A stretch of DNA of 64,000 nt from an uncultured Gammaproteobacteria bacterium (GTDB lineage: Bacteria > Patescibacteriota > Microgenomatia > Levybacterales > UBA12049), in contig CAYMJR010000002.1 in NCBI GenBank assembly GCA_964391315.1, forward strand, positions 89,223-153,222. The letters run 5' to 3'. This document shows, one piece after another, positions 1,366-63,059 of this stretch (the stretch's first letter is position 1; each line of letters begins with the position of its first letter). The translations under genes were made by a program, and so were the position numbers. Under the pieces are notes generated by a model. That model ran no database searches. It was not told the origin of the DNA and worked only from the letters and a program-made list of their open reading frames with translations.

Positions 1366-2094
1366 ATGCACGAAGTTTCTTTTGAGGTCGATGGACAAAC
1401 TCTTCGCGGGATGATTTTTTATCCGGAGAAAATAAAAGAAAAAAATCCCGCTATTCTTTTTATTCATGGCTGGATGAGTAGTGAAAGAAATTATTTAGCA
1501 AGAGCAGAGGCGCTGACAAAATTAGGTTTTATCTGTTTGATTTTTAGTATGCGTGGACATGGTACAAGTGAAGGAGATATCAAAAAGCAAACGCGTCAGG
1601 ATTTCTTCAATGATGTTCTTGCAGCATATGATTTTCTTGCACGACAAAAGAACGTTAATTCAGATAACATTAGTGTAGTTGGTGCAAGCTTTGGCGCGTA
1701 TCTTGCAGCACTTGTTAGTAAGGAAAGAAATGTTAAAAATTTAGCTTTTCGTGTTCCTGCCAATTATCCAGATGAAACTTTTAATGAAGTGCAATTTAAT
1801 TTTTCTGGGGACAATAGTGCAACGCTTTTACATCCAAAGTTTACAGCACTCCAATCAGAACAAAGTTATGCGTTAAAAGCACTAAGTAGTTTTTCGGGTG
1901 ATATACTGATTATTGAATCTGAACATGATGAATTTATCCCACATCAAATAGTAAAAAATTATTTAAATGCAGTAAAAAATAAAAGTAAATTGGATTATGT
2001 TGTTATGAAAGACACAGGTCATAATCTTTCTAATGAAAAAATGTTGCAAGAGTTTATAACGATATTGACTGATTGGTTTGCTGATCAAGTATGA
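1366..2094 (+). CDS. Alpha/beta-fold serine hydrolase (dienelactone hydrolase / S9-like), cytoplasmic
   Basis: 242 aa. It has an HGWMSS region, the nucleophile elbow GASFG (VVGASFGAY), acidic SEHDEF and C-terminal DTGHNL, which fit a Ser-Asp-His triad. No signal peptide is present. Its stop overlaps the murG start (ATGA at 2091-2094). Confidence 0.7.
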   Translation: MHEVSFEVDGQTLRGMIFYPEKIKEKNPAILFIHGWMSSERNYLARAEALTKLGFICLIFSMRGHGTSEGDIKKQTRQDFFNDVLAAYDFLARQKNVNSDNISVVGASFGAYLAALVSKERNVKNLAFRVPANYPDETFNEVQFNFSGDNSATLLHPKFTALQSEQSYALKALSSFSGDILIIESEHDEFIPHQIVKNYLNAVKNKSKLDYVVMKDTGHNLSNEKMLQEFITILTDWFADQV

Positions 2095-3221
2095 AATTAT
2101 TAATCGTTGCCGGGGGAGGCGGACATTTTGCACCAGCACTTGCTGTTATTGAACAATTACCAAAAGATGTTGAGGTTTTAGTCGTTGGACGGAAATACAC
2201 CTTTGAAGCAGAAAAAACCGAGTCATTGGAATATAAAACAGCACAGCAATTGGGAATCGCATTTGAACCGCTCACAACAGGTCGTTTACAAAGACGACTT
2301 ACTCCCTATACCTTTTTGTCGCTTGCAAAAATTCCTGTCGGATATTTTCAAGCACTTGGGATTGTTAAACAATTCAAACCGGATGTTGTGTTATCTTTTG
2401 GCGGGTATGTTTCTGTCCCTGTTGCGTTTGCAGCAAAGACACTTGGTATTCCGGTTATCATTCATGAGCAAATTCTCAGAGCTGGTCTTGCCAATAAAAT
2501 TGTTGCTACATTTGCAAAAAAAGTTTGTGTATCATGGAAAGAATCAACCAAATTTTTTCCAGAGACGAAGGTAGTTGTGACGGGAAACCCGATAAGGAAA
2601 GTTCAAAGTTCAAAGTTCAAAGTTCAAAGTTTTGACGATAAGTTTCCTCTTATTTATGTGACGGGTGGAAGCAGTGGAGCACATGCAATTAATGAACTGA
2701 TTGAACAATCTCTTGAGAAACTTTTGCAAAAATATACGATTGTTCATCAAACAGGAGATTCACAAACATTTGCTGATTTTGACCGGCTGAAGAAGAAAAA
2801 GGAAGAATTACCCGAAGCACTTCAGAAGCGGTATATTGTGACCAAATTTGTTGATGCGTCTGAAGTTTTTTCACTTATGGATCAAGCAGCGTTAGTAATT
2901 TCCCGTTCCGGTATAAATACTGTTACAGAGCTTTTATCTCTTGGTAAACCATGCCTTTTGATTCCACTTCCTCATGGACAACATAACGAGCAATTGACCA
3001 ATGCACTTTTTGTCAAACAAAAAGGCATTGCAGATGTAGCAACACAAGAAGAATTGACGGGTGAGAAATTATATGATTTGATTACAAAAATGTTTGAGCA
3101 GATTGATGAATATAAGAAACATGGAATCACATCAAAAGAGGAGATCATCCCCGATGCTGCAAAAAATATTATTTCCATTGTCGAACATGTTAACAACGAA
3201 ACGAAAAATACGAGAGCGTAA
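2091..3221 (+). CDS. murG: UDP-GlcNAc:lipid I N-acetylglucosaminyltransferase MurG (GT28)
   Basis: 376 aa. It has the N-terminal glycine loop VAGGGGHFAPALAV, GNPIR, VTGGSSGA, and SRSGINTVTELLSLGKPCLLIPLPH..QHNEQLTNA. Its dcw position is the expected one. Confidence 0.9.
   Translation: MKLLIVAGGGGHFAPALAVIEQLPKDVEVLVVGRKYTFEAEKTESLEYKTAQQLGIAFEPLTTGRLQRRLTPYTFLSLAKIPVGYFQALGIVKQFKPDVVLSFGGYVSVPVAFAAKTLGIPVIIHEQILRAGLANKIVATFAKKVCVSWKESTKFFPETKVVVTGNPIRKVQSSKFKVQSFDDKFPLIYVTGGSSGAHAINELIEQSLEKLLQKYTIVHQTGDSQTFADFDRLKKKKEELPEALQKRYIVTKFVDASEVFSLMDQAALVISRSGINTVTELLSLGKPCLLIPLPHGQHNEQLTNALFVKQKGIADVATQEELTGEKLYDLITKMFEQIDEYKKHGITSKEEIIPDAAKNIISIVEHVNNETKNTRA
2598..2632 (+). repeat. Perfect heptanucleotide tandem array AAAGTTC x4 plus AAAGTTT, inside murG
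   Basis: Read directly: aaagttc aaagttc aaagttc aaagttc aaagttt. It is translated in the murG frame as KVQSSKFKVQSF. Confidence 0.95.
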
Positions 3222-7454: not shown

Positions 7455-7483
7455 TTGACATCTGGTTTTGCTCTTGGAATACT
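7455..7483 (+). promoter_or_regulatory. Sigma70-like promoter (TTGACA-17 nt-AATACT), 8 nt upstream of the ATG at 7492
   Basis: TTGACA is at 7455-7460, followed by a 17-nt spacer and AATACT at 7478-7483, with the ATG at 7492. The TTG start of the track ORF (7468) falls inside the spacer. Confidence 0.35.
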
Positions 7484-7491
7484 TAAGATAT

Positions 7492-8253
7492 ATGGAGAAC
7501 ATTTCAACTCCCCCCCAAAAGCCACTTCTGGTAGATGGACCTCCCACAGTTGAATATATCGAGACAAAAAGGAATTGGAAGAAAATTTTTGAGATCTGTG
7601 CCGTAATTATCATTATTAGTATTCCGCTTATTCTGTCACTTTTTAAAATTGACTATTCGGTTAAAAGTGCCTATGAAGTAGTGAATCCGGCATATGTAGG
7701 GACGTCCTCTGACTATGGAACCTGGGGAAATATTGTGACAGTAGCTAAAAAGTTTATCCAACCGGTTATCCAATTAACGCCTCAACCTACAGCTACACCT
7801 ACGCTCTCACCTGTGCCACCAGCCATGCGACACCAACAGGAGGTACAACAGCCACAGCATTCAGAGCAATCTGTCCCCGCACAGGATCAGAACTGGGCAC
7901 AGTATCAGTATCCCTCACAGGTAAATGATTCACCTCTATCTTATCCTCCTGATGTTCAAATGCAAGAGCCGACGTCGACACCAACAGACATACCCACCTC
8001 AATTCCTACACCCACATTCAGGCCCACCTCAACCCCTACACCCACATTCAGGCCCACCTCAACCCCTACACCCAGGCCCACAATGACTCCTTCACCTGCT
8101 CCTAATAATGACCAAATCGATGTGTATGCAGCGTATACAGCCTGCTATGGTAAAAAAAATAACGCAGCCTGTTCCTATCAGTCGTCTTATGGGGGGATAG
8201 TCAACGGCAAATGCAAGACATCGACTGAAGGATATTTAACATGTGGTCAGTAA
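7492..8253 (+). CDS. Membrane-anchored Pro/Thr-rich repeat protein with a small 4-Cys C-terminal domain
   Basis: It has an N-terminal TM (ICAVIIIISIPLILSLF) and a long P/T/Q-rich region including PTPTFRPTSTPTPTFRPTSTPTPRPT. The C-terminus reads CYGKKNNAACSYQSSYGGIVNGKCKTSTEGYLTC. Confidence 0.6.
   Translation: MENISTPPQKPLLVDGPPTVEYIETKRNWKKIFEICAVIIIISIPLILSLFKIDYSVKSAYEVVNPAYVGTSSDYGTWGNIVTVAKKFIQPVIQLTPQPTATPTLSPVPPAMRHQQEVQQPQHSEQSVPAQDQNWAQYQYPSQVNDSPLSYPPDVQMQEPTSTPTDIPTSIPTPTFRPTSTPTPTFRPTSTPTPRPTMTPSPAPNNDQIDVYAAYTACYGKKNNAACSYQSSYGGIVNGKCKTSTEGYLTCGQ
8005..8080 (+). repeat. 30-bp tandem direct repeat (about 2.5 copies) encoding PTPTFRPTST
   Basis: cctacacccacattcaggcccacctcaacc occurs identically at 8005-8034 and 8035-8064, followed by a partial third copy at 8065-8080. 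Confidence 0.95.
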
Positions 8254-12452: not shown

Positions 12453-15293
12453 ATGTTCAAACCTATTTCGTCAAAAATTGATTTTCCAGCAATTGAGGAA
12501 GAAATACTTCGATATTGGAAAGAAAATAAAATATTTGAAAAATCCATTACCTCGCGTCCTGAAGATAAAGAGTGGACATTTCTTGACGGTCCGCCATTTG
12601 TCACAGGCATGCCTCATTATGGATCACTTCTTTCAAGTCTTCCCAAAGATCTCTTTGGACGATATTGGACCATGAAAGGGTATCGTGTTCGAAGAGTTTG
12701 GGGATGGGATGGTCATGGTCTGCCGATTGAAAATAAAGTCGAGGGCGAACTCGATATTAAACGCAAGAAAGATATTGAAGAAAAAGTCGGAATCAAAAAG
12801 TTTATCGAGCGATGTTTGTATTACGTCAACCAAGTTTCAGGCGAATGGGAATGGTATGTTGATCATATCGGACGCTGGGTTGATTTCAAAAATGCCTACA
12901 AAACATGGGACATTTCTCACATGGAATCAGTAATGTGGGTGTTTCATGAAATGTACAAGAAAGGTTATATCTACAAAGGCTTGAAGGTCTCACTTTATTG
13001 TCCGCATTGTGCAACACCTATTTCCAATTTTGAAGTTGCGATGGACGCTGAGAATTATAAGGAACTTCCTGATGCAGCAACGACATATAAATATCCCCTC
13101 GTTGGCGAAAAGAATACGTTTATCCTGGCATGGTCGACAACACCTTGGAACAAAATTGTTACTCCAGCACTTGCTGTTAATCCAAAATTGACTTATGTGA
13201 AAGTTAAACAAGGCGATGAATATTATATTTTAGCTAAAAATACCTTAAAGATGCTGGATGGCAAGAATGAGATCGTTGAAGAGTTTAAGGGTACCAAACT
13301 TGAAGGAGTGAAATTTGTTCCTCATTATGATTATTACAAAAAAGATGTGAAAGAAGGAGAAAAAGTTTTCGAAATCGTTCTTGATGAATTTGTCACTGCT
13401 GATGAAGGCACAGGTGTTGTTACTCTTGCTGTGTACGGAGAAGAGGATTTGAAAGTCATGAAAGAACAGAATATTCATATGGTCATGCACCTTGATGAAG
13501 AAGGGATGATCAAGCCTGAAGTGCCCTTCTTTGGCGGGATGTATTATCTTAAAGCAAACAAAGCAGTTGAGGAAGATTTGGAGAAGCGGGGACTTATCTA
13601 CAAAGCACAAGAATTGCCCCACAATGTTCCACTTTGCTGGAGATGCCACACACGGCTTTACTACGCGCCAATCGATGCATGGTATGTAAATGTGCAGAAT
13701 CTGAAAGAAAAAATGAAAGAGACCAATGAACTCGTCAATTGGTTCCCCAAACATTTTAAATATGGACGTTTCTTAAAGAGTCTTGAGAATGCGCCTGACT
13801 GGAATATCTCACGAAACCGCTACTGGGGAAGTCCTGTACCTGTTTGGGAATGTGACTGCGGTGAACGTTTTGTCCCAGGATCTATTAAAGAACTTGAAGA
13901 ACGTTCAGGTCAAAAAGTTACCAACCTTCACAAACCAGATATTGATGAAGTAACCGTAAAGTGTGAAAAGTGTGGTAAAGAAGTTCATCGTGTCCCGGAA
14001 GTTTTAGACAGCTGGATTGAAGCAGGATCAGCGTCATTTGGTGAACGCCATTATCCTTTTGAAAAGGATCAACCACCTCTTGATAGTTTTTATCCACCAG
14101 ATTTTATTGCTGAATATACTGGACAGATCCGTGCGTGGTTTTACGTATTACACGTCATTGCAAATGTATTGTCGCTTCGAAAAGACGGTCAAAATATGCT
14201 TTCCCGCAATGTTTTGGTAGAAGGCGTTATTCTTGGAACAGATGGCCGCAAGATGAGTAAGAATTTCAAGAATTATCCTGATCCAAAAGAAATGCTTCAA
14301 AAATATGGAGGAGATGCATTGCGCTTATATCTTATGGGAAGTCCTGTGATGCACGGAGAGGATATCCTGATTTCAGAAGATCAGTATAAGATGCAGGTCC
14401 GCGGTACCATGCTCATTCTTTGGAATGTTTACAATTTTTTTATTACGTACGCGAATATTGATAATTGGAAACCGAACGAAAGTCAAAAATCGAAAGTCGA
14501 AAGCCAAAATGTATTGGATAAATGGATCTTGACTGAGTTAACTGAACTGGTAGCAGCTGTAACGAAAAGTCTCGATGGCTATGATACGGTTACTGCGATT
14601 GATAGTCTGAAAGACTTTGTTAGTGATTTCTCAACTTGGTATATCAGACGAAGCCGTGACCGTGTTGGACCGACAGCACCATCACAGGAAGATAAAGAAG
14701 CATTTTATGAGACTACCTATCACGTGTTGACGACTCTTTGCAAATTATTTGCTCCAATTGCTCCGTTCTTTTCAGAAGCAATGTATCTCAATCTCACAAG
14801 TGAAGAGTCAGTCCATTTATCAGCATGGCCCACATTAAGTCAAAAGTTAAAAGTCGAAAGTCAAAGGCTAATTGAGGATATGAAATTGGTGAGGAAAGTT
14901 GTTGAAGTAGCGCTTGCACAGAGAAAAGAAGCGCAAAAGAAGGTCCGCCATCCACTGGCTTCTCTTCATATAACAGCAGAGTTCTCTTTGTCTGATGAAC
15001 TCAAACAGCTCATTAAAGATGAAGTCAATGTTAAGGAAGTTAAAGAAACAAAAGGGGAGTTTGCTGTTGTCTTAGACACTACCACGACAACTCCAGAACT
15101 TGAAGCAGAAGGACAAGCACGTGATATTGTCCGTCAGATCCAAGACGAGCGTAAGAAGCTCGGGACAGACTTATCAGAAAAAGTTGATGTCGTTTTGGAA
15201 TCCTGGCCAGAAAAGTTTGAAGAATATATTAAAAGAAACGCATTGGTGAATAACCTTATAAAAGGTGAATTTGCAATTAAACGTTTGCAATAA
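12453..15293 (+). CDS. ileS: Isoleucyl-tRNA synthetase, type 2 architecture
   Basis: It has the HIGH-type motif PHYGSLL, KMSKN, the Zn-knuckle pairs CPHCATP/CWRCHT and CDCG..CEKCG, and the C-terminus ELEAEGQARDIVRQIQDERKKLG typical of type 2 IleRS. The start is set at MFKPISSKIDFPAIEEEILRYW. Confidence 0.95.
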   Translation: MFKPISSKIDFPAIEEEILRYWKENKIFEKSITSRPEDKEWTFLDGPPFVTGMPHYGSLLSSLPKDLFGRYWTMKGYRVRRVWGWDGHGLPIENKVEGELDIKRKKDIEEKVGIKKFIERCLYYVNQVSGEWEWYVDHIGRWVDFKNAYKTWDISHMESVMWVFHEMYKKGYIYKGLKVSLYCPHCATPISNFEVAMDAENYKELPDAATTYKYPLVGEKNTFILAWSTTPWNKIVTPALAVNPKLTYVKVKQGDEYYILAKNTLKMLDGKNEIVEEFKGTKLEGVKFVPHYDYYKKDVKEGEKVFEIVLDEFVTADEGTGVVTLAVYGEEDLKVMKEQNIHMVMHLDEEGMIKPEVPFFGGMYYLKANKAVEEDLEKRGLIYKAQELPHNVPLCWRCHTRLYYAPIDAWYVNVQNLKEKMKETNELVNWFPKHFKYGRFLKSLENAPDWNISRNRYWGSPVPVWECDCGERFVPGSIKELEERSGQKVTNLHKPDIDEVTVKCEKCGKEVHRVPEVLDSWIEAGSASFGERHYPFEKDQPPLDSFYPPDFIAEYTGQIRAWFYVLHVIANVLSLRKDGQNMLSRNVLVEGVILGTDGRKMSKNFKNYPDPKEMLQKYGGDALRLYLMGSPVMHGEDILISEDQYKMQVRGTMLILWNVYNFFITYANIDNWKPNESQKSKVESQNVLDKWILTELTELVAAVTKSLDGYDTVTAIDSLKDFVSDFSTWYIRRSRDRVGPTAPSQEDKEAFYETTYHVLTTLCKLFAPIAPFFSEAMYLNLTSEESVHLSAWPTLSQKLKVESQRLIEDMKLVRKVVEVALAQRKEAQKKVRHPLASLHITAEFSLSDELKQLIKDEVNVKEVKETKGEFAVVLDTTTTTPELEAEGQARDIVRQIQDERKKLGTDLSEKVDVVLESWPEKFEEYIKRNALVNNLIKGEFAIKRLQ
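14471..14512 (+). repeat. Degenerate period-7 array (ACCGAAC GAAAGTC AAAAATC GAAAGTC GAAAGCC AAAATGT) inside ileS
   Basis: Read directly. It is translated as ESQKSKVESQNV in a variable linker preceding the DKWIL helix. Confidence 0.8.
14837..14871 (+). repeat. Degenerate period-7 array (AAGTCAA AAGTTAA AAGTCGA AAGTCAA AGGCTAA) inside ileS
   Basis: Read directly. It is translated as SQKLKVESQRL, just after the HLSAWP motif. Confidence 0.8.
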
Positions 15294-20195: not shown

Positions 20196-21434
20196 ATGAA
20201 AATTGGTTTTTTTACTGATAGTTACCTGCCACAATTAGATGGTATGGCAACATCTGTTGAAATTTGTGCTCATGCATTGGAAGAACGAGGACATGAGGTA
20301 TACATTATTGCTCCAAGATATCCCCGCTATAAAGATATTACCCCAAATGTTTATCGGTTAACATCTTTTAAATTTGTTGATACACCCGAAATGCGATGGA
20401 CCTTGCAATTACCTGAAAGACCTTTACTCAAAATTCTGAGAATCAATTTTGATCTCATTCATGGACATTCTGGTGGTGGAATGACTTTGTTAGGTCTGGA
20501 AATTGCTCGAGCGAAAGGTATTCCTTTTGTCGGTACATATCACACGATGGTTAGTCATTATGCACATTATTTCTTTAATGGGAAAATAGTTACTCCAAAA
20601 ATGCTCGAATTTGCCACGAAGTTTATTGGTAATTTATGTGATTATCTTATTGCACCAACAGAACGGGTGAAAAAAGACCTTGTTATGTATGGGGTGAAAA
20701 GGCAAATTGAAGTAATTCCAAGTGGAATTGATTTAGATAATTATAAAAATATTGAGAAAGGATTTATTCGAAATTCAGTTGATGTCGCGAAAGATGCAAA
20801 AATTCTTTTGTATGTTGGGCGGTTGGGTAAAGAGAAATCAGTTGACTTTCTTATCCAGTCATTTGCATTGATTCATGAGAAAAGTCCTGATACTGTTCTT
20901 GTATTAGTTGGAGAAGGTCCAGAAAAAAGAAAATTAAAAAGACTTGTTCAATCGTTAAAGTTAAAAGACCACGTAATCTTTTTTGGCAGTGTCAATCATC
21001 ATGAGATCCCAAAAGTTTATGCTGATGCCGATATTTTTGTTTTTGCTTCTCGTACAGAAACACAGGGATTGGTGCTTCTTGAAGCACTTGCATCAAATCT
21101 TCCAGTTGTTGCTGTGGAGGATGATGCTTTTGATAATGTGATCAAAATTTCCAAAAACGGATACTTGGTAAAACCAGACGAAAAACGTTTTGCAGCAAAA
21201 ACATTGGATCTTCTCCATAATCAACGCTTATATAAAAGTTTTTCTGAAGCAGCTGGGAAAAGTGCACAAAAATTTGCAGTCGAAAATACTGCAATCTATT
21301 TGGAAAGACTCTATGAACAGGTTATTAGAGAGAAGGAAAAACAAAATAAAAATAGCATTCCAGTAAAAAGCATCAATAGCGTTAAAGAATTTTTATCAAA
21401 AGCAAACTATAAATTAAGAAAGTACTACGAATGA
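20196..21434 (+). CDS. Glycosyltransferase family 4 (GT-B, group 1)
   Basis: It has MKIGFFTDSYLPQLDGMATSV at the N-terminus and the C-terminal EX7E region FVFASRTETQGLVLLEALASNLPVVA. Confidence 0.88.
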   Translation: MKIGFFTDSYLPQLDGMATSVEICAHALEERGHEVYIIAPRYPRYKDITPNVYRLTSFKFVDTPEMRWTLQLPERPLLKILRINFDLIHGHSGGGMTLLGLEIARAKGIPFVGTYHTMVSHYAHYFFNGKIVTPKMLEFATKFIGNLCDYLIAPTERVKKDLVMYGVKRQIEVIPSGIDLDNYKNIEKGFIRNSVDVAKDAKILLYVGRLGKEKSVDFLIQSFALIHEKSPDTVLVLVGEGPEKRKLKRLVQSLKLKDHVIFFGSVNHHEIPKVYADADIFVFASRTETQGLVLLEALASNLPVVAVEDDAFDNVIKISKNGYLVKPDEKRFAAKTLDLLHNQRLYKSFSEAAGKSAQKFAVENTAIYLERLYEQVIREKEKQNKNSIPVKSINSVKEFLSKANYKLRKYYE

Positions 21435-24055
21435 ATATCCTTTTCCTCGCAAGACGCTTCTATCCTGATGTTGGCGGTGTTGAAAAGCACGTTCTGGAAA
21501 TAAGCAAACGTTTAGCTTCTCAAGGCCAAAAGATAACTATAATTACTCAATCACAAAATAGCAACAAAAAAGATATTTTAGCCAGTAATATAAGTATTAT
21601 TCGTATTCCTCAACATGGAAGAAAAAATGAAAAATTTTTTATTTGGAGATGGTTTTGGAAAAATAGAAATTTGTTACAAGCAGCTGATATTATTCATTGT
21701 CACGATGTTTTTTATTGGTATTTTCCTTTTCGTTTTCTTTACCCTCAAAAACCTGTTTTTACTACATTTCATGGATATGAAAGTTATCCGATAAAGATAA
21801 AAGCAATAGTTGTTAGAAAAATTTCAGAAGCTCTCTCTTTTGGGAATATTTGTATTGGTGATTTTATTAAGAAATGGTACGACACCAAACCAACTATCGT
21901 TTCATACGGAGCTGTTGATCGTTCAAAGTTTGAAGTTCAAAGTACAAAGTTGAGTAAGGAATCTGCGGTATTTTTTGGAAGACTTGATGAACAGACAGGA
22001 GTAGAGACGTATGTAAAAGCATTTGAAATTTTAAAAGAGAAATACCCAAAATTTGAAATGTTAGTCGTTGGAGATGGAAAATATAAAAAAAGAATTGAGA
22101 AGAAAGTGAAAGTAATCGGTTTTCAAGATACTGTTGAAAAATATCTTCATCGATATCGTTTTGCATTTGTCTCACGATATCTTTCCATACTTGAAGCCTT
22201 TGCTGCAAAACGTTTAGTTTTTGCACTTTATGATAATCCGGTGAAAGAAGATTATTTACGGATGACTCCATTTGCAAAATATATGATTATCGAAAAAGAT
22301 CCTGAGAAGCTTGTGAGAAAGGTAGAGTTTATTATGGATCATCCGAAAGTTGAAAAAAAGATGATAGAAAGCGCATATTCATTTGTCAAAAAACAAACAT
22401 GGGATAATTTAGTTGTTCTCTATCTCAACCTTTGGAAGCAAGAAAAAACTTCAAATCTTACTCAAAAAAAGAAAATATTTTCTGGAAGCATTGCTTTTAT
22501 TTTTTCAATTATTCTTTTTCTTGCTTGTATTCTGTATCAAATTAATTTACCTTATGTTGGTCCAAATGCCACAACAGCTAATGCATATTCCTTAATTGCA
22601 CACAATTTTGTCAAATTTGGCTATTTACAAACAAAATTTGCACCAGTTATATCAATCAGCCCATATTTACCAAAAGAACCTGTCTATTATTTTCATCACC
22701 CTGTTTTACTTTCTTTTACAGAATCACTTTTATTTAGAGTCTTTGGAGAAGGCTTTTGGGTAGGAAGACTTTCTGTAATACTTTTTACCTTTGGATCATT
22801 TATTTTATTATATTTTATTGGAAAAGAATCAGCAGATAAAAAATTTGGTTTTTTTGCATTTTTAACAGCTTCATTAATCCCAGGGTATACGATATTTGGA
22901 AAATTGATTGATCATGAACCCTTGGTACTTTTTTATTGCTTATTAAGCCTATTCATAATCTTGAAATATTTCCATGAAAACAAAAAAGGATATATTGTTA
23001 TGGCATTATTTATTTCAGCTTTAGGTGTTATGAGTGATTGGCCAGCTGTTTATTTCCTTCCTTGTTTTCTACCGCTTTTTTTTAAATATAAAAAAATTCG
23101 TGTTGCTGGTTTACTCTTTCTTTCATCTTTTTTGGTTATCGCTTTTTTATTAGGGAGTATATATTTCATACGACCAATAGAGTTTCTCGAACTTTGGGAG
23201 CCAATACAACATAGTAGTATACATAATCTGCTGGTTGTTCCCGAATGGCCGCTTCGTTTTTTTGCGACGACATCCATTCGAACACTTATCTATTTTAGTC
23301 CTTTGCTTGTTATTTTTGCCCTGATAAATATCTATACAATTGTAAAAAACATAAAGAGAAAACAAATATCAGATAAAGATCTAGTAATAAGTGGGTTTGC
23401 TATTTTTGGTGGTTTCCATGTGCTGTTATATTCGTATGCTTCTTTTACTCATCCATATCTTGTTTATTATTTAATTCCATTTGTAGCTTTTAGTTCGGCG
23501 ATGTTTTTACAGAGATATTATGAAAAAAAATCATATAAATTTTTATTTATGATTTTTCTTTTTTGTTTCTTATATTTAATTACCATTCAAGTATATAAAA
23601 ACAAGCAGATTCTTGCAGATCTTTGGAGATATCAACTTATTGTAGCAGTCAGTAAATATCTTGCTCCATATGAGGAAGTTCAGGTTAATGGTCTTTCTGC
23701 ATTAAACTCAGATACTTTTTGGAGATTTTCTATTATTACTTTAGGTAATGACAATGTCTATTCACTAGACACTAAAAAATATAAACACTATATTCATTCT
23801 TGTCCGCAGATATGTAAATCTGACGACGTCCAAGTGCGTTATTTAAAGAAACGATACAACTACAAGCATTTTATTAATTCTGGTGGAGAAGCTTATATAT
23901 TCTTTATTCAACAAACAAAAATTTCTTCTGAACATGAAACTATTAATTTATCTCAATCAGACCAGCAGGTTAACAAAAAAGAAAATATCTTTGATAAGAA
24001 AGTTCACGATATATATCGAAGATTAAGAGATGCACTTCATGTGCCTCAGTTTTAA
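21431..24055 (+). CDS. Fusion protein: N-terminal GT4 (GT-B) domain plus C-terminal polytopic GT-C (PMT_2/ArnT-like) domain
   Basis: 874 aa. Residues 1-~335 carry MNILFLARRFYPDVGGVEKHV and LSILEAFAAKRLVFA (GT4). Residues ~345-800 have more than 10 TM helices, with HHPVLLSFTESLLFRVFGEGFWVGRLSVILFTFGSFILLYFIG typical of GT39/83-like proteins. Its start overlaps the upstream GT4 stop (ATGA). Confidence 0.75.
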   Translation: MNILFLARRFYPDVGGVEKHVLEISKRLASQGQKITIITQSQNSNKKDILASNISIIRIPQHGRKNEKFFIWRWFWKNRNLLQAADIIHCHDVFYWYFPFRFLYPQKPVFTTFHGYESYPIKIKAIVVRKISEALSFGNICIGDFIKKWYDTKPTIVSYGAVDRSKFEVQSTKLSKESAVFFGRLDEQTGVETYVKAFEILKEKYPKFEMLVVGDGKYKKRIEKKVKVIGFQDTVEKYLHRYRFAFVSRYLSILEAFAAKRLVFALYDNPVKEDYLRMTPFAKYMIIEKDPEKLVRKVEFIMDHPKVEKKMIESAYSFVKKQTWDNLVVLYLNLWKQEKTSNLTQKKKIFSGSIAFIFSIILFLACILYQINLPYVGPNATTANAYSLIAHNFVKFGYLQTKFAPVISISPYLPKEPVYYFHHPVLLSFTESLLFRVFGEGFWVGRLSVILFTFGSFILLYFIGKESADKKFGFFAFLTASLIPGYTIFGKLIDHEPLVLFYCLLSLFIILKYFHENKKGYIVMALFISALGVMSDWPAVYFLPCFLPLFFKYKKIRVAGLLFLSSFLVIAFLLGSIYFIRPIEFLELWEPIQHSSIHNLLVVPEWPLRFFATTSIRTLIYFSPLLVIFALINIYTIVKNIKRKQISDKDLVISGFAIFGGFHVLLYSYASFTHPYLVYYLIPFVAFSSAMFLQRYYEKKSYKFLFMIFLFCFLYLITIQVYKNKQILADLWRYQLIVAVSKYLAPYEEVQVNGLSALNSDTFWRFSIITLGNDNVYSLDTKKYKHYIHSCPQICKSDDVQVRYLKKRYNYKHFINSGGEAYIFFIQQTKISSEHETINLSQSDQQVNKKENIFDKKVHDIYRRLRDALHVPQF
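21921..21955 (+). repeat. Period-7 array (GTTCAAA GTTTGAA GTTCAAA GTACAAA GTTGAGT) inside the GT4::GT-C gene
   Basis: Read directly. It is translated as SKFEVQSTKLSK. Confidence 0.85.
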
Positions 24056-53277: not shown

Positions 53278-53397
53278 AAGTATTAGCTCAAGAACTATTC
53301 TATTATACAGCAATTGCCTATCTTTTCCTTTTGCATAGATAATGTTTATTTTTTTATTTTTAATTTTATAATATAATTGTTCAGATTGTATTAGTAT

Positions 53398-58149: not shown

Positions 58150-59366
58150 AAATATTAAAATTTCTTTTTATTCTTCTTCTTATACTTTTTCCTATTGGAG
58201 AGATTTTGCGGTTTGATGTAGGAAATAATATTGTTCTTAAACCACTAGATTTTGTGGCAGGGATAACAGTAGTTTGGTGGATGATATTGCAAGCTCAAAG
58301 TTCAAAGTTCAAAATTCAAAATTTAAAGAAGCACTATTTTATTTTACCATTAGTTTCTTTTGTCGCGATTGGATTTGCTGCATTAGTTATTAATCTTGCT
58401 TGGCTCAAACCACAAGAATTTATAGTTAGTTTATTATACCTACTTCGCTTTGTTTCATACGCATTTTTACTTCCCGTCACACTACAATTCGATAAAATTT
58501 TTAGAAGAAAAATTATTTTTATTCTTTTAATTGATGGTTTGGTAATTCTTATTTTGGGTTATTTTCAATATTTTTTCTTTAATAGTCTGAAGAGTCTTTA
58601 TTACCTTGGTTGGGATGAGCACAAACATCGAATTTTTTCAACATTTTTTGATCCCAATTTCACCGGAGCGTTTTATGTACTATATTTACTGATTATTGCA
58701 GGATTACTGTATGAGGTTTATCGAAAACAAAAACAGCAGGAAACGATTGCGTTGAGTGTTCTTTTACTTTTGACACTCCTAGCAGTATTTTTAACATTTT
58801 CCCGATCAGCTTTGTTGATGTTAATTGTCGGTGGAATAACTTTTTTTGTTCTTATCAAGAAGAAAAAGTTATTATTTTTTCTTTTTGGTGCAATTCTTTT
58901 ATTTGGTATTATTGCATCTCCCAAATTTCACGACGAAAATATGAATTTATTCCGTGAAGCTTCAAGTAAAGCACGGGTCGCAAATATCGAGACAGCGTTA
59001 CGTATTATTCAGGATCGGCCAATTCTTGGGGTAGGATTTAATAGTTATCGATACACAAAATCCTTATATCATTTACAACACGATTGGGTGAATGCACCTT
59101 CTCATGCTGATGCAGGAGTAGATAATAGTTATCTTTTTGTCTTGGCAACAACAGGTATCATAGGTTTCGGCTTTTATCTCTGGCTATGGATTGCTATGAT
59201 AAAAAACGCATTCGTCCTTTACCATAAAAAGATGATGATAGGAGCAATTATTGTTATTTCATCAATTTTTGCAATTTTTACAAATGCTCTTTTTATTAAT
59301 AGTCTTTTCTTTTCTCCGCTTATGCTTTGGTTGTGGCTTGAAGTAGGATTGATTGAAGAGTTTTAG
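58146..59366 (+). CDS. O-antigen ligase / polymerase family protein (Wzy_C domain)
   Basis: 406 aa and polytopic. It has FLTFSRSALLMLIVGG, the periplasmic loop RPILGVGFNSYRY, and SHADAGVDNSYLFVLATTGIIG. Confidence 0.75.
   Translation: MKILKFLFILLLILFPIGEILRFDVGNNIVLKPLDFVAGITVVWWMILQAQSSKFKIQNLKKHYFILPLVSFVAIGFAALVINLAWLKPQEFIVSLLYLLRFVSYAFLLPVTLQFDKIFRRKIIFILLIDGLVILILGYFQYFFFNSLKSLYYLGWDEHKHRIFSTFFDPNFTGAFYVLYLLIIAGLLYEVYRKQKQQETIALSVLLLLTLLAVFLTFSRSALLMLIVGGITFFVLIKKKKLLFFLFGAILLFGIIASPKFHDENMNLFREASSKARVANIETALRIIQDRPILGVGFNSYRYTKSLYHLQHDWVNAPSHADAGVDNSYLFVLATTGIIGFGFYLWLWIAMIKNAFVLYHKKMMIGAIIVISSIFAIFTNALFINSLFFSPLMLWLWLEVGLIEEF
58293..58327 (+). repeat. Period-7 array (GCTCAAA GTTCAAA GTTCAAA ATTCAAA ATTTAAA) inside the O-antigen-ligase-like gene
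   Basis: Read directly. It is translated as AQSSKFKIQNLKK in the loop after the second TM segment. Confidence 0.9.
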
Positions 59367-60680: not shown

Positions 60681-61583
60681 TTATTGAGCTGCCTGGGCGC
60701 CTGTTATATCAAGCAACTCGCTCGTGATCTTAGCTTGGCGTGTTTTATTATACTCTAATTTCAAATCTTCGATGATGTCTTTTGCATTGTTGGTGGCATT
60801 TTGCATGGAGAGCATGCGTGCTGCTTGTTCTGATAGATAACTTTCAAGAATTTCCTGATAGATTACCATTTCTATATATCGTTTGAGAAGGTCAGGAAGG
60901 ATTGTTTCGATGTCTGGTTCAAAAAGTGCGAAGTGTTCAGATTCTGATTTTGTTTGTGGTTTGGTTGTAGCCACAGCACTGAGATCAGGAGTCTCTACTT
61001 GTAAGTTGTCTTGGGGTAGTATTGGTAATAACTTAGTCCAGTGAGGGCGTTGGGTAAAGACACTGGCATAATGTGTTGAAAGTACTTCAACTTTGTCGAC
61101 TTTTCCACCAAGGAAATGGTCGTCAATTAATTTAGTAATAGGGTAGACGACGTCAAATTTAGGAAGGGTATTACCAAAAGGGAATGAAGCGACGAGGTCT
61201 CGGCCGATATAGGCAATAGTGCTCTCGATTTTTTTACCAATGGTAATATAAATTTCATCTTTACTATTTGGTCGTCTGATAATTTCTTTCGTGAGATTCG
61301 TAACCAGTCCTCCGCAAAGACCTTTATCTGGTGCAACGACAACGACAAGCGTTTTTCCTGTCTTATCAGTTTCTTTCATGTAGGAAGGTAAGGCTGCTGT
61401 TTCAACGCGGTTGGTTAGATTGCGAGTAACGACTGAGAGCTTGTCTACATACGGACGTGATGCCAGTGCTGCGTCTTGTGCTTTTTTTAATTTTGATGCA
61501 GCAATCATCTGCATGGCGCGTGTTGTTTTGGACACGTTTTGTGCAGTTCGGATTCTTCTGAGTAATGCCATTGTGTTTGCCAT
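60681..61583 (-). CDS. atpG: F1 ATP synthase gamma subunit
   Basis: It has LRRIRTAQNVSKTTRAMQMIAASKLKKAQ at the N-terminus and LEYNKTRQAKITSELLDI at the C-terminus. Confidence 0.92.
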   Translation of the reverse strand: MANTMALLRRIRTAQNVSKTTRAMQMIAASKLKKAQDAALASRPYVDKLSVVTRNLTNRVETAALPSYMKETDKTGKTLVVVVAPDKGLCGGLVTNLTKEIIRRPNSKDEIYITIGKKIESTIAYIGRDLVASFPFGNTLPKFDVVYPITKLIDDHFLGGKVDKVEVLSTHYASVFTQRPHWTKLLPILPQDNLQVETPDLSAVATTKPQTKSESEHFALFEPDIETILPDLLKRYIEMVIYQEILESYLSEQAARMLSMQNATNNAKDIIEDLKLEYNKTRQAKITSELLDITGAQAAQ

Positions 61584-61631
61584 ATGTTTAGGGTTTAGTA
61601 ATTAGTGCTTAGTGATTAGCAAGAAGCAGGA

Positions 61632-63059
<1,428 letters not shown>

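Follow-up and report, generated by a model that had tools for sequence, protein, structure and literature searches.

Why does murG, a gene that is essential and single-copy in model bacteria, as is ileS, carry a perfect tandem array of a 7-nt unit in the middle of its reading frame? The question is raised by a 64-kb stretch of DNA from an uncultured Levybacterium (contig CAYMJR010000002.1; the whole stretch is called the window below). At nt 2598-2631, on the + strand, the window has a perfect (AAAGTTC)x4.9 array, for which Tandem Repeats Finder (TRF) gives a period of 7 and 100% matches. The array is therefore real, as described in an earlier note on this DNA made from the sequence alone. This array and similar ones in the window represent a known, unexplained class of bacterial heptanucleotide repeats in an unusual in-gene form, and not a new mobile element. 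They are probably simple-sequence repeats that formed in situ by local tandem duplication and were filtered by selection within genes. The periodicity is at the nucleotide level, the arrays lie in linkers, orthologous sites carry arrays of other units, and avoidance of stop codons constrains the unit. Arrays of this class also occur in intergenic DNA and in other phyla.

The open reading frame (ORF) hosting the array, at nt 2091-3221, is MurG according to Pfam. The array falls between the two Pfam domains (Glyco_transf_28, aa 4-146; Glyco_tran_28_C, aa 188-359), and is read in the murG frame as GNPIR-KVQSSKFKVQSF-DDKFPLIYVTGGSSGA, where KVQSSKFKVQSF is the array peptide. An AlphaFold2 model, for which 30 orthologues were supplied, has two confident domains (mean predicted local distance difference test score, pLDDT, of 86.8). 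Residues 164-186 are coil in this model, and residues 171-180 have a mean pLDDT of only 54. These results agree with the proposal of the earlier note that the arrays lie in tolerant linkers of variable length. Four further sequencing runs (L001-L004) yielded contigs with the identical array, which shows that the DNA is genuine and no assembly artefact. The RNA around the array folds no better than shuffled sequence (z = +0.51) and forms no hairpin. A scan of the window with Rfam gathering thresholds found a tRNA-Thr alone, and the array matches no known RNA family. The window is ~97% coding, and the named relatives of its MurG and IleRS belong to Levyibacteriota (Levybacteria, of the Microgenomates group within Patescibacteria or candidate phyla radiation, CPR). 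Among the GTDB representatives listed, the best MurG match is 61-65% identical.

We compared the linkers of 120 orthologues each of MurG, IleRS and the glycosyltransferase family 4 (GT4) protein discussed below, and of 150 representative homologues of a Wzy_C protein. MurG orthologues with 53-72% identity have linkers similar in length to that in the window, and many of these linkers contain peptides that correspond to other heptamer arrays. For example, KFQISNFKFQI decodes to (AAATTTC)n and KYQVSSIKYQVS to (AAGTATC)n. At the DNA level, the same codons hold (AAATTTC)n in L005, (AAGTATC)x5 with one mismatch in L006 and (AAAGTTC)n in L007, and further arrays are present in the MurG linkers of L125, L135, L140 and L159. 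The murG block is thus not the lineage-specific insertion that had been suggested, since orthologous linkers are equally long and many have heptamer arrays at this site. Two other claims of the earlier note are borne out. What repeats is the nucleotide sequence, and the array is not an ordinary conserved peptide linker, because orthologues encode the site by periodic DNA whose units differ. In a neighbour-joining tree of MurG that excludes the linker, array-bearing lineages are interleaved with lineages that have unrelated linkers, which indicates that array turnover is fast relative to protein divergence. The sister of the MurG with (AAGTATC)5 has a different linker that resembles a palindromic element. 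Between species, the unit and the presence of arrays at the same loci vary strongly; within the species of the window, at least five sequencing runs agree in both array and protein, and the clusters at 90% identity have one member each.

Two additional observations concern these linkers. In a Levyibacteriota metagenome-assembled genome (MAG; OFTM197, JAJDCG010000001.1), murG (L159:10001-11103) is broken exactly at an (AAATTTC)x4 array, and TAG follows immediately. The C-terminal domain resumes in another frame, and the addition of one unit would mend the frame. This may be a real slippage allele that lacks one unit, or it may be an assembly error. In other Levybacteria, the linkers that hold arrays contain in-frame GC-rich inserts, with peptides such as ...IPGLTRNPEIDSRLRGNDK, ...LLSVARNDEK or ...VIPDLIGDPRSLDSRLRGNDN. 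Such inserts occur at L128:10508-10585, in MurG (P0008, P0019, P0025, P0087), in IleRS (P0134, P0135, P0162, P0176) and in GT4 proteins (P0258, P0281, P0292, P0304, P0331). By reading of the sequence alone, the L128 insert looks palindromic (GTCATTCCTGG/CCAGGAATC, ATTCCCGC/GCGGGAAT). The insert looks like an element of the repetitive extragenic palindromic (REP) type or of the MITE type (miniature transposable elements with inverted repeats) that is tolerated in frame, by analogy to the Rickettsia palindromic elements (RPE).

The four further in-gene arrays listed in the earlier note (two in ileS, one in a GT4 fusion gene and one in an O-antigen-ligase-like gene) are present at their coordinates in + strand ORFs. 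At IleRS site 1 (14471-14512, +), a degenerate period-7 array (AAAGTCA/AAAATCG/AAAGTCG/AAAGCCA) encodes NESQKSKVESQ. It separates the catalytic domain, where Pfam places the end of tRNA-synt_1 at aa 646, from the anticodon-binding domain, with Anticodon_1 beginning at aa 701. The period-7 array at IleRS site 2 (AAGTCAA/AAGTTAA/AAGTCGA; 14837-14871, +) encodes SQKLKVESQ in a loop after the conserved WP motif. The GT4 array consists of 4.4 copies of GTTCAAA with 75% matches (21921-21955, +; peptide RSKFEVQSTKL). It lies in the linker that joins two Rossmann-like domains (Pfam Glyco_transf_4, aa 14-120; Glycos_transf_1, aa 169-317). In the Wzy_C (O-antigen-ligase-like) protein, AAGTTCA followed by AAAATTC makes up 5.4 copies with 87% matches (58291-58328, +; peptide QSSKFKIQNL), in a loop after an N-terminal hydrophobic segment, which we identified by visual inspection of the translated sequence. 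Apart from this array, which occupies a membrane-protein loop, all in-gene arrays (four of five) are at or near domain boundaries. The earlier note had missed that the ileS units AAAGTCG and AAAGTCA depart from the murG unit at two of seven positions, and that period-7 arrays of different units are also present between genes, one or two in number. The clearer of these is a TTAGTGA array (61586-61622) whose unit contains stop codons. It takes up most of the 48 nt that separate two genes on the - strand (60681-61583 and 61632-63056). The other is a weak, AT-rich TAATTTT array with 76% matches in a divergent intergenic region (53340-53372), and its membership in the class is uncertain given its low complexity.

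Orthologues of these other hosts also carry arrays of differing units. An IleRS that is 85% identical to that in the window has (AAATCTC)x3.5 at site 1 (L205). In the ileS gene of a 1.14-Mb Levybacteria chromosome (L206), site 1 holds (AAAACTC)x4.5, and site 2 holds (GAATTCA)x4.7. Overall, site 2 holds (AAAGTTC)n, (GAATTCA)n or (AAAACTC)n in orthologues. We also asked of each protein whether any stop-free heptamer array could encode a 9-aa segment with at most one mismatch. Peptides compatible with such arrays are found in 13/120 MurG orthologues, every one at aa 158-185, in 25/120 IleRS orthologues at four sites, and in 21/120 GT4 orthologues, 19 of them within the interdomain linker. For MurG and IleRS, the matches are confined to linker positions. 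At the Wzy site, none of the 150 representative homologues has an array, and the loop in the window is ~5-7 aa longer than theirs; this array looks lineage-specific. As a separate observation, the IleRS site 1 of L125 (20701-20757) and of protein P0138 contains a period-8 array, (CAAGTCAT)x3, with the peptide QVIKSSSH. Thus, period 7 is dominant, but it is not exclusive.

The arrays exceed what is expected by chance. We scanned both strands of the window for 28-nt matches to (AAAGTTC)n with at most 7 mismatches. The + strand yielded four sites and the - strand yielded none, compared with ~0.4 sites expected for both strands combined under an order-3 Markov model. An excess over a composition-matched expectation (four to five arrays observed) and the survival of the sense orientation alone within genes had both been predicted, and both held. 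Self-match scans of the window at periods 4-12 found strong arrays at period 7 alone, and 30 simulations yielded no period-7 hits. Among TRF arrays with at least three copies, period 7 accounts for 7/7 in the window and 13/24 in 613 kb of Levybacteria loci. Histograms of perfect runs in 1.4 Mb also place period 7 far above periods 5, 6 and 8-10, and period-7 runs seldom exceed ~35 nt. The window thus has what characterizes the heptanucleotide long simple-sequence repeats (LSSR) of prokaryotes, namely tandem 7-nt units beyond composition and an over-representation of period 7. Moreover, dispersed arrays with several different units (AAAGTTC, AAAGTCR, TTAGTGA and TAATTTT) occur within 64 kb. There are one or two arrays in 2.2 kb of intergenic DNA and five in 61.8 kb of coding DNA, such that the intergenic density is 6-11 times that of coding DNA. 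This density, together with the stop-containing unit of the clearer intergenic array, is consistent with a selective filter inside genes.

If the arrays are not copies of one sequence, why do their units resemble each other? There are 532 AT-rich heptamer necklaces with at most two G/C, of which 224 are stop-free in all frames, and ~63 of the 224 encode one to three hydrophobic residues. Nearly all AT-rich units seen in genes fall within these ~63, with AATTTTC (four hydrophobic residues) narrowly excluded; linker units that are G-rich do not count as AT-rich. The AAAGTTC unit is stop-free in every frame, and its complement is absent from the stop-free units. Where a T run gives way to an A run, TAA, TAG and TGA are avoided only if a base intervenes, most simply C, which favours a TCAA core. 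The consensus of the family is therefore largely forced by stop-codon avoidance in AT-rich units. Of the shared period-7 motif that had been proposed, the arrays themselves are real, but the ileS unit differs and the common consensus largely reflects this avoidance.

The flanks of the arrays also argue for a local origin. The last unit at IleRS site 1 overlaps the codons of a conserved S/T-Q/E-N motif, and the unit tracks the local codon variant (ACT, TCT or AGC, then CAA AA), as expected if arrays are seeded locally. The window arrays, all five, lack common flanks, terminal repeats and target duplications, and so the conserved ends, target duplication and shared flanks of a mobile repeat element (MITE, REP or RPE-like) are not seen. 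Since the flanks are not shared and the units differ between sites and between relatives, the arrays are not copies of one dispersed element founded in murG, as the earlier note had supposed. We also considered a genome-specific unit maintained by genome-wide concerted evolution, and rejected it as a rule, since L206 has AAAACTC and GAATTCA in one gene. Contigs common to the MurG, IleRS and GT4 searches showed no concordance of units. A weak tendency to unit sharing persists, both in the window (three of five arrays) and at the metagenome loci described next.

Heptamer arrays are not restricted to Levybacteria. Outgroup loci, fetched with the same MurG query as the Levybacteria loci, include a Chloroflexia locus (L187) with 10 heptamer arrays in 21 kb, each of a different unit; the four that we read directly are between long ORFs. 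A Thermomicrobiales locus (L168) has nine arrays, a Saccharibacteria locus (L200) has five, and some occur in Paceibacterota, Nitrospinota and Methylomirabilota. In Chloroflexota, intergenic spacers contain heptamer arrays of ~4-5 units. A closer view of one region in the Chloroflexia MAG (L187:3100-5600, GC content 0.68) revealed spacers with perfect CGAATGA, ACTCAGC, AGTGCTG, CTCGTTA and ACTCACG arrays, and also octamer arrays (CCCGACTA, GGGCAGTC).

A 25-mer of (AAAGTTC)n matches more than 120 metagenome stretches, with GC contents of 0.29-0.68. We fetched 80 of these loci, so that each was selected for an AAAGTTC array. The copies in these arrays match perfectly, the phase of the unit is arbitrary at either end, and the flanks are unrelated. 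In 38/80 cases, the array is inside an ORF of at least 250 aa, always in the sense that encodes KVQSSKF. Hosts confirmed by Pfam are CarB, UvrA, LeuRS, penicillin amidase, PolX, a P-type ATPase, LarC and a Mur ligase. Lengths of 30-35 nt are found for 32/38 arrays in ORFs versus 11/31 outside ORFs (Fisher p = 5e-5). The array-bearing CarB has a net gain of 7 aa relative to E. coli CarB. The arrays in UvrA and LarC sit in long variable linkers, where a net insertion size is not derivable from homologues with solved structures. Most metagenome loci carry further heptamer arrays, chiefly of other units, and at least 11/80 loci have a second period-7 array whose unit is again AAAGTTC.

In viral contigs, a 17-mer of the AAAGTTC array matches 117 stretches, compared with at least 120 for AAATTTC, 76 for ACAGATT, 33 for AAGATTC and 24 for AAAGTCT. 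The idea that AAAGTTC is uniquely special is thus unsupported, with control 17-mers ranging from 24 to at least 120; AAAGTTC is among the favoured units, but is not unique. In five IMG/VR contigs with GC contents of ~0.6 (L087, L021, L051, L037, L054), we observed 5-13 heptamer arrays each, with the units GTTCAAG, GTTCAAC, GTTCAAA and their complements in both orientations. This pattern suggests that one GC-rich host or phage group prefers related units.

How might such arrays arise in genes? In the mechanism that we consider probable, a local 7-nt unit would be duplicated in tandem, in situ, to give ~4-5 copies (~33 nt). Within a coding sequence, such an array would then have to pass several filters. 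Its unit would need to be stop-free in every frame of the sense strand. The net change in length would need to be a multiple of 3 and, because 7 is not, in-gene change would occur in steps of three units (21 nt, 7 aa). The encoded peptide, which has a 7-aa period and is rich in S, K and Q, would need to be harmless, and its position would need to be a permissive surface or interdomain linker. The array would be translated as a flexible spacer, and no function of its own would be necessary. Arrays would decay by point mutation, and would vanish or re-form rapidly at the same permissive sites, so that different lineages would show different units there. The duplication mechanism, the steps of several units and the neutrality of the arrays are what we infer; in particular, the net 7 aa in CarB, the ~5-7 aa in Wzy and the clustering at 30-35 nt point to multi-unit events.

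Several results weigh against this mechanism. Every step of one unit is a frameshift, and therefore stepwise slippage cannot build arrays in essential single-copy genes; a multi-unit event of some kind has to be assumed. Copy-number alleles are absent from public assemblies for both MurG (7 contigs) and IleRS (9 contigs), unlike the prediction for a fast-slipping microsatellite. The exact AAAGTTC unit is common to three of the five in-gene arrays in the window, and it is not merely a common heptamer, an explanation that we rejected because AAAGTTC ranks only 318 of 2315 single heptamers in the window. In viral contigs, its 17-mer is 1.5-5 times commoner than same-composition controls. Some GC-rich genes (L264, L236, L268), in which a local seed is unlikely, contain perfect, AT-rich (AAAGTTC)n arrays whose borders are abrupt. 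Finally, the MurG proteins of the window and L007 are 58.5% identical, and their genes are 64% identical overall and 46% at third positions, but the array (murG codons 166-182) is the most conserved 45 nt, with 89% identity and 80% at third positions, tied with the G-loop motif. This likeness could reflect either convergence on a favoured unit or a constraint on the nucleotides themselves.

The first of these difficulties would be removed if a dedicated multi-unit "burst", and not stepwise slippage, produces heptamer arrays, which we put forward tentatively as a possibility that is not the expected one. For example, a 7-nt template could be copied reiteratively while DNA is repaired or replication is restarted, and each event could add roughly three extra units (~21 nt, for a total of ~33 nt). 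In-frame arrays in essential genes would then be the natural footprint of such events, and would never have passed through intermediates of one unit. Arrays would keep re-forming at the same linkers in Levybacteria, and perhaps in Chloroflexota and other phyla, and would provide compact genomes with a general source of new linker peptides.

Other explanations start from the same observations. The arrays could be a dispersed cassette, in which a ~33-nt (GTTCAAA)n block is inserted by a templated process, and in-frame copies are kept in tolerant loops; this is close to the idea of the earlier note. The block could be written by a repair polymerase or an enzyme of the reverse-transcriptase or telomerase type, or another array could supply it through template switching. 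Such insertion would account for the perfect, AT-rich arrays of 30-35 nt with abrupt borders in unrelated genes (carB, uvrA, leuS, larC and a Mur ligase) over GC contents of 0.29-0.68, for the narrow range of in-ORF lengths and for the impassable intermediates of one unit in essential genes, and the single unit in three of five window arrays and the second AAAGTTC array at 11 or more of the 80 metagenome loci are also in its favour. However, the arrays begin and stop at any phase, and common flanks, terminal repeats and target duplications are absent. Co-resident arrays are mostly of unrelated units, the two ileS sites of L206 differ, the unit at ileS site 1 tracks local codons, and other heptamers are about as common in viral contigs as AAAGTTC (AAATTTC at least 120 and ACAGATT 76, versus 117). 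We therefore regard a cassette as unlikely. Somewhat less likely still is a functional cis element that is read in a 7-nt register in DNA or RNA, for example as a platform for proteins of the oligonucleotide-binding (OB) fold or cold-shock type, with one protein per heptamer, or as a translational pause that aids co-translational folding. The domain-boundary location of four of five in-gene arrays and the recurrence at the same sites across Levybacteria could be explained in this way, as could the bound of ~5 units and the strong conservation of the murG array between the window and L007; also, CspB has been reported to bind heptamer repeats (reviewed in PMC4679880). On the other hand, tolerance alone predicts the domain-boundary location equally well, the unit varies between orthologues and between sites, close relatives lack arrays or have an unrelated palindromic element in their place, and there is no RNA structure signal (z as given above).

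Phase variation, in which one-unit changes in a contingency locus switch a downstream domain or gene off and on, is brought to mind by the interrupted L159 murG, whose frame is restorable by one unit, and by the GT4 and Wzy hosts, which are surface-polysaccharide genes and thus typical targets. It is very improbable: murG and ileS are essential and single-copy. The arrays are short (at most five units), the same array and protein recur across sequencing runs with single-member clusters, and the L159 frameshift may be an assembly error. Known contingency simple-sequence repeats, such as those of Haemophilus influenzae, likewise have units that are not multiples of three in or beside genes, but they are long, highly polymorphic tracts in dispensable surface genes, unlike the tracts here, which have at most five units, are invariant across samples and reside in genes that model bacteria cannot do without (PMC2651432, PMC3315296). 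Lastly, peptides of the form K-hydrophobic-Q-x-S-x-hydrophobic recur in orthologues, as they would in ordinary conserved low-complexity linkers. This explanation, or chance, is hardly conceivable, and was refuted by the Markov scan (four to five arrays versus ~0.4) and by orthologue DNA with other units: the DNA has a 7-nt period in each lineage, and codon choices go beyond selection on the peptide.

We return to in situ simple-sequence repeats, and to how the arrays compare with described systems. Heptanucleotide repeats have reportedly been known in bacteria since 1990. Two later papers state that heptanucleotides are the most abundant LSSR in most prokaryotic genomes, and give as a proposed cause a 7-nt contact of DNA polymerase that leads to preferred 7-nt slippage (Mrazek et al. 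2007, via PMC4679880 and PMC4692102). According to the same papers, the origin of LSSR (units of 5-11 nt) with heptanucleotide units is unexplained, and cases inside ORFs have been described (PMC4679880, PMC4692102). The statement in the earlier note that no element of this kind is described thus does not stand. The window arrays share with heptanucleotide LSSR their head-to-tail units, the dominance of period 7, the many arrays scattered per genome and the phylogenetically scattered distribution. They differ in that they are mostly in frame within genes of ~97% coding CPR DNA, with two essential hosts. A literature search on the AAAGTTC unit sequence found nothing relevant.

Short tandemly repeated repetitive (STRR) sequences are also similar. 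The STRR units are said to be CCCCAGT, TTGGTCA and CAACAGT, as reported by Mazel et al. in 1990. These tandem heptanucleotides are known in Calothrix PCC 7601 and other heterocystous cyanobacteria (PMC4692102, PMC4748335). Like the window arrays, they are dispersed heptamer arrays of few copies with several unit families per genome. They are mainly intergenic and cyanobacterial, whereas the window arrays are A-rich, stop-free and translated in a Levybacterium host. The window units are not those of STRR1-3, and the likeness is in kind alone.

The closest precedent within ORFs is the TAACTGA repeat of marine Beggiatoaceae, cyanobacteria and Bacteroidetes, which forms arrays of 2-6 copies (PMC4679880). 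A few of these arrays are inside ORFs in the stop-free orientation, where they encode the 7-aa peptide LSVISYQ, mostly at the protein periphery and including a MurG; the argument on stop codons and orientation was already made for them (PMC4679880). TAACTGA is a single favoured unit that lies mostly upstream of start codons, and translational regulation has been proposed (PMC4679880). By contrast, the Levybacteria arrays have many units, are mostly in interdomain linkers within genes and recur at orthologous sites. The GGGAATC/GGGGAYT repeats of Xanthomonas and Nostoc show a sharp preference for about four units, and their loci vary strongly in length and sequence between close relatives (PMC4692102). 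They are G-rich, whereas the window arrays are A/T-rich, unstructured and coding.

A different comparison is with RPE, which also place repetitive DNA in frame in surface loops of housekeeping proteins. RPE were reportedly described by Ogata et al. in 2000 as in-frame insertions in genes. They are palindromic mobile elements of 100-150 bp with conserved sequence, unlike the ~33-nt tandem arrays of the window, which have neither palindrome nor conserved flanks. Elements like RPE, in frame and palindromic, occupy these linkers in some other Levybacteria.

Two aspects seem new in view of the papers searched. Across a CPR phylum, in-frame arrays repeatedly occupy the same interdomain linkers of essential genes while their unit turns over, and similar in-frame arrays are present in housekeeping genes of unrelated bacteria. 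The in-gene arrays make the origin of heptanucleotide repeats a testable question. Arrays in essential genes are a natural filter: a change of one unit is lethal, and so the survivors reveal both the event size (multiples of three units) and the tolerant sites. The arrays repeatedly supply CPR proteins with linker peptides that are lineage-specific, and mark permissive insertion sites in MurG, IleRS and glycosyltransferases of the GT-B fold. They are also a likely cause of frameshift calls in MAGs, such as the broken L159 murG.

Two other features of the window are noted. The ORF at 21431-24055 (874 aa), which hosts the GT4 array, encodes a GT4 glycosyltransferase fused to a C-terminal PMT_2 membrane domain of the GT-C type. 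Each of the 120 homologues listed for the GT4 part is a protein on its own, 333-404 aa in length, and so the fusion, or a missed stop, looks unusual. Finally, a 30-nt tandem repeat (CCCACCTCAACCCCTACACCCACATTCAGG) with 2.7 copies and 96% matches occurs at 7993-8074, within the ORF at 7468-8253, where the repetition is at the codon level.

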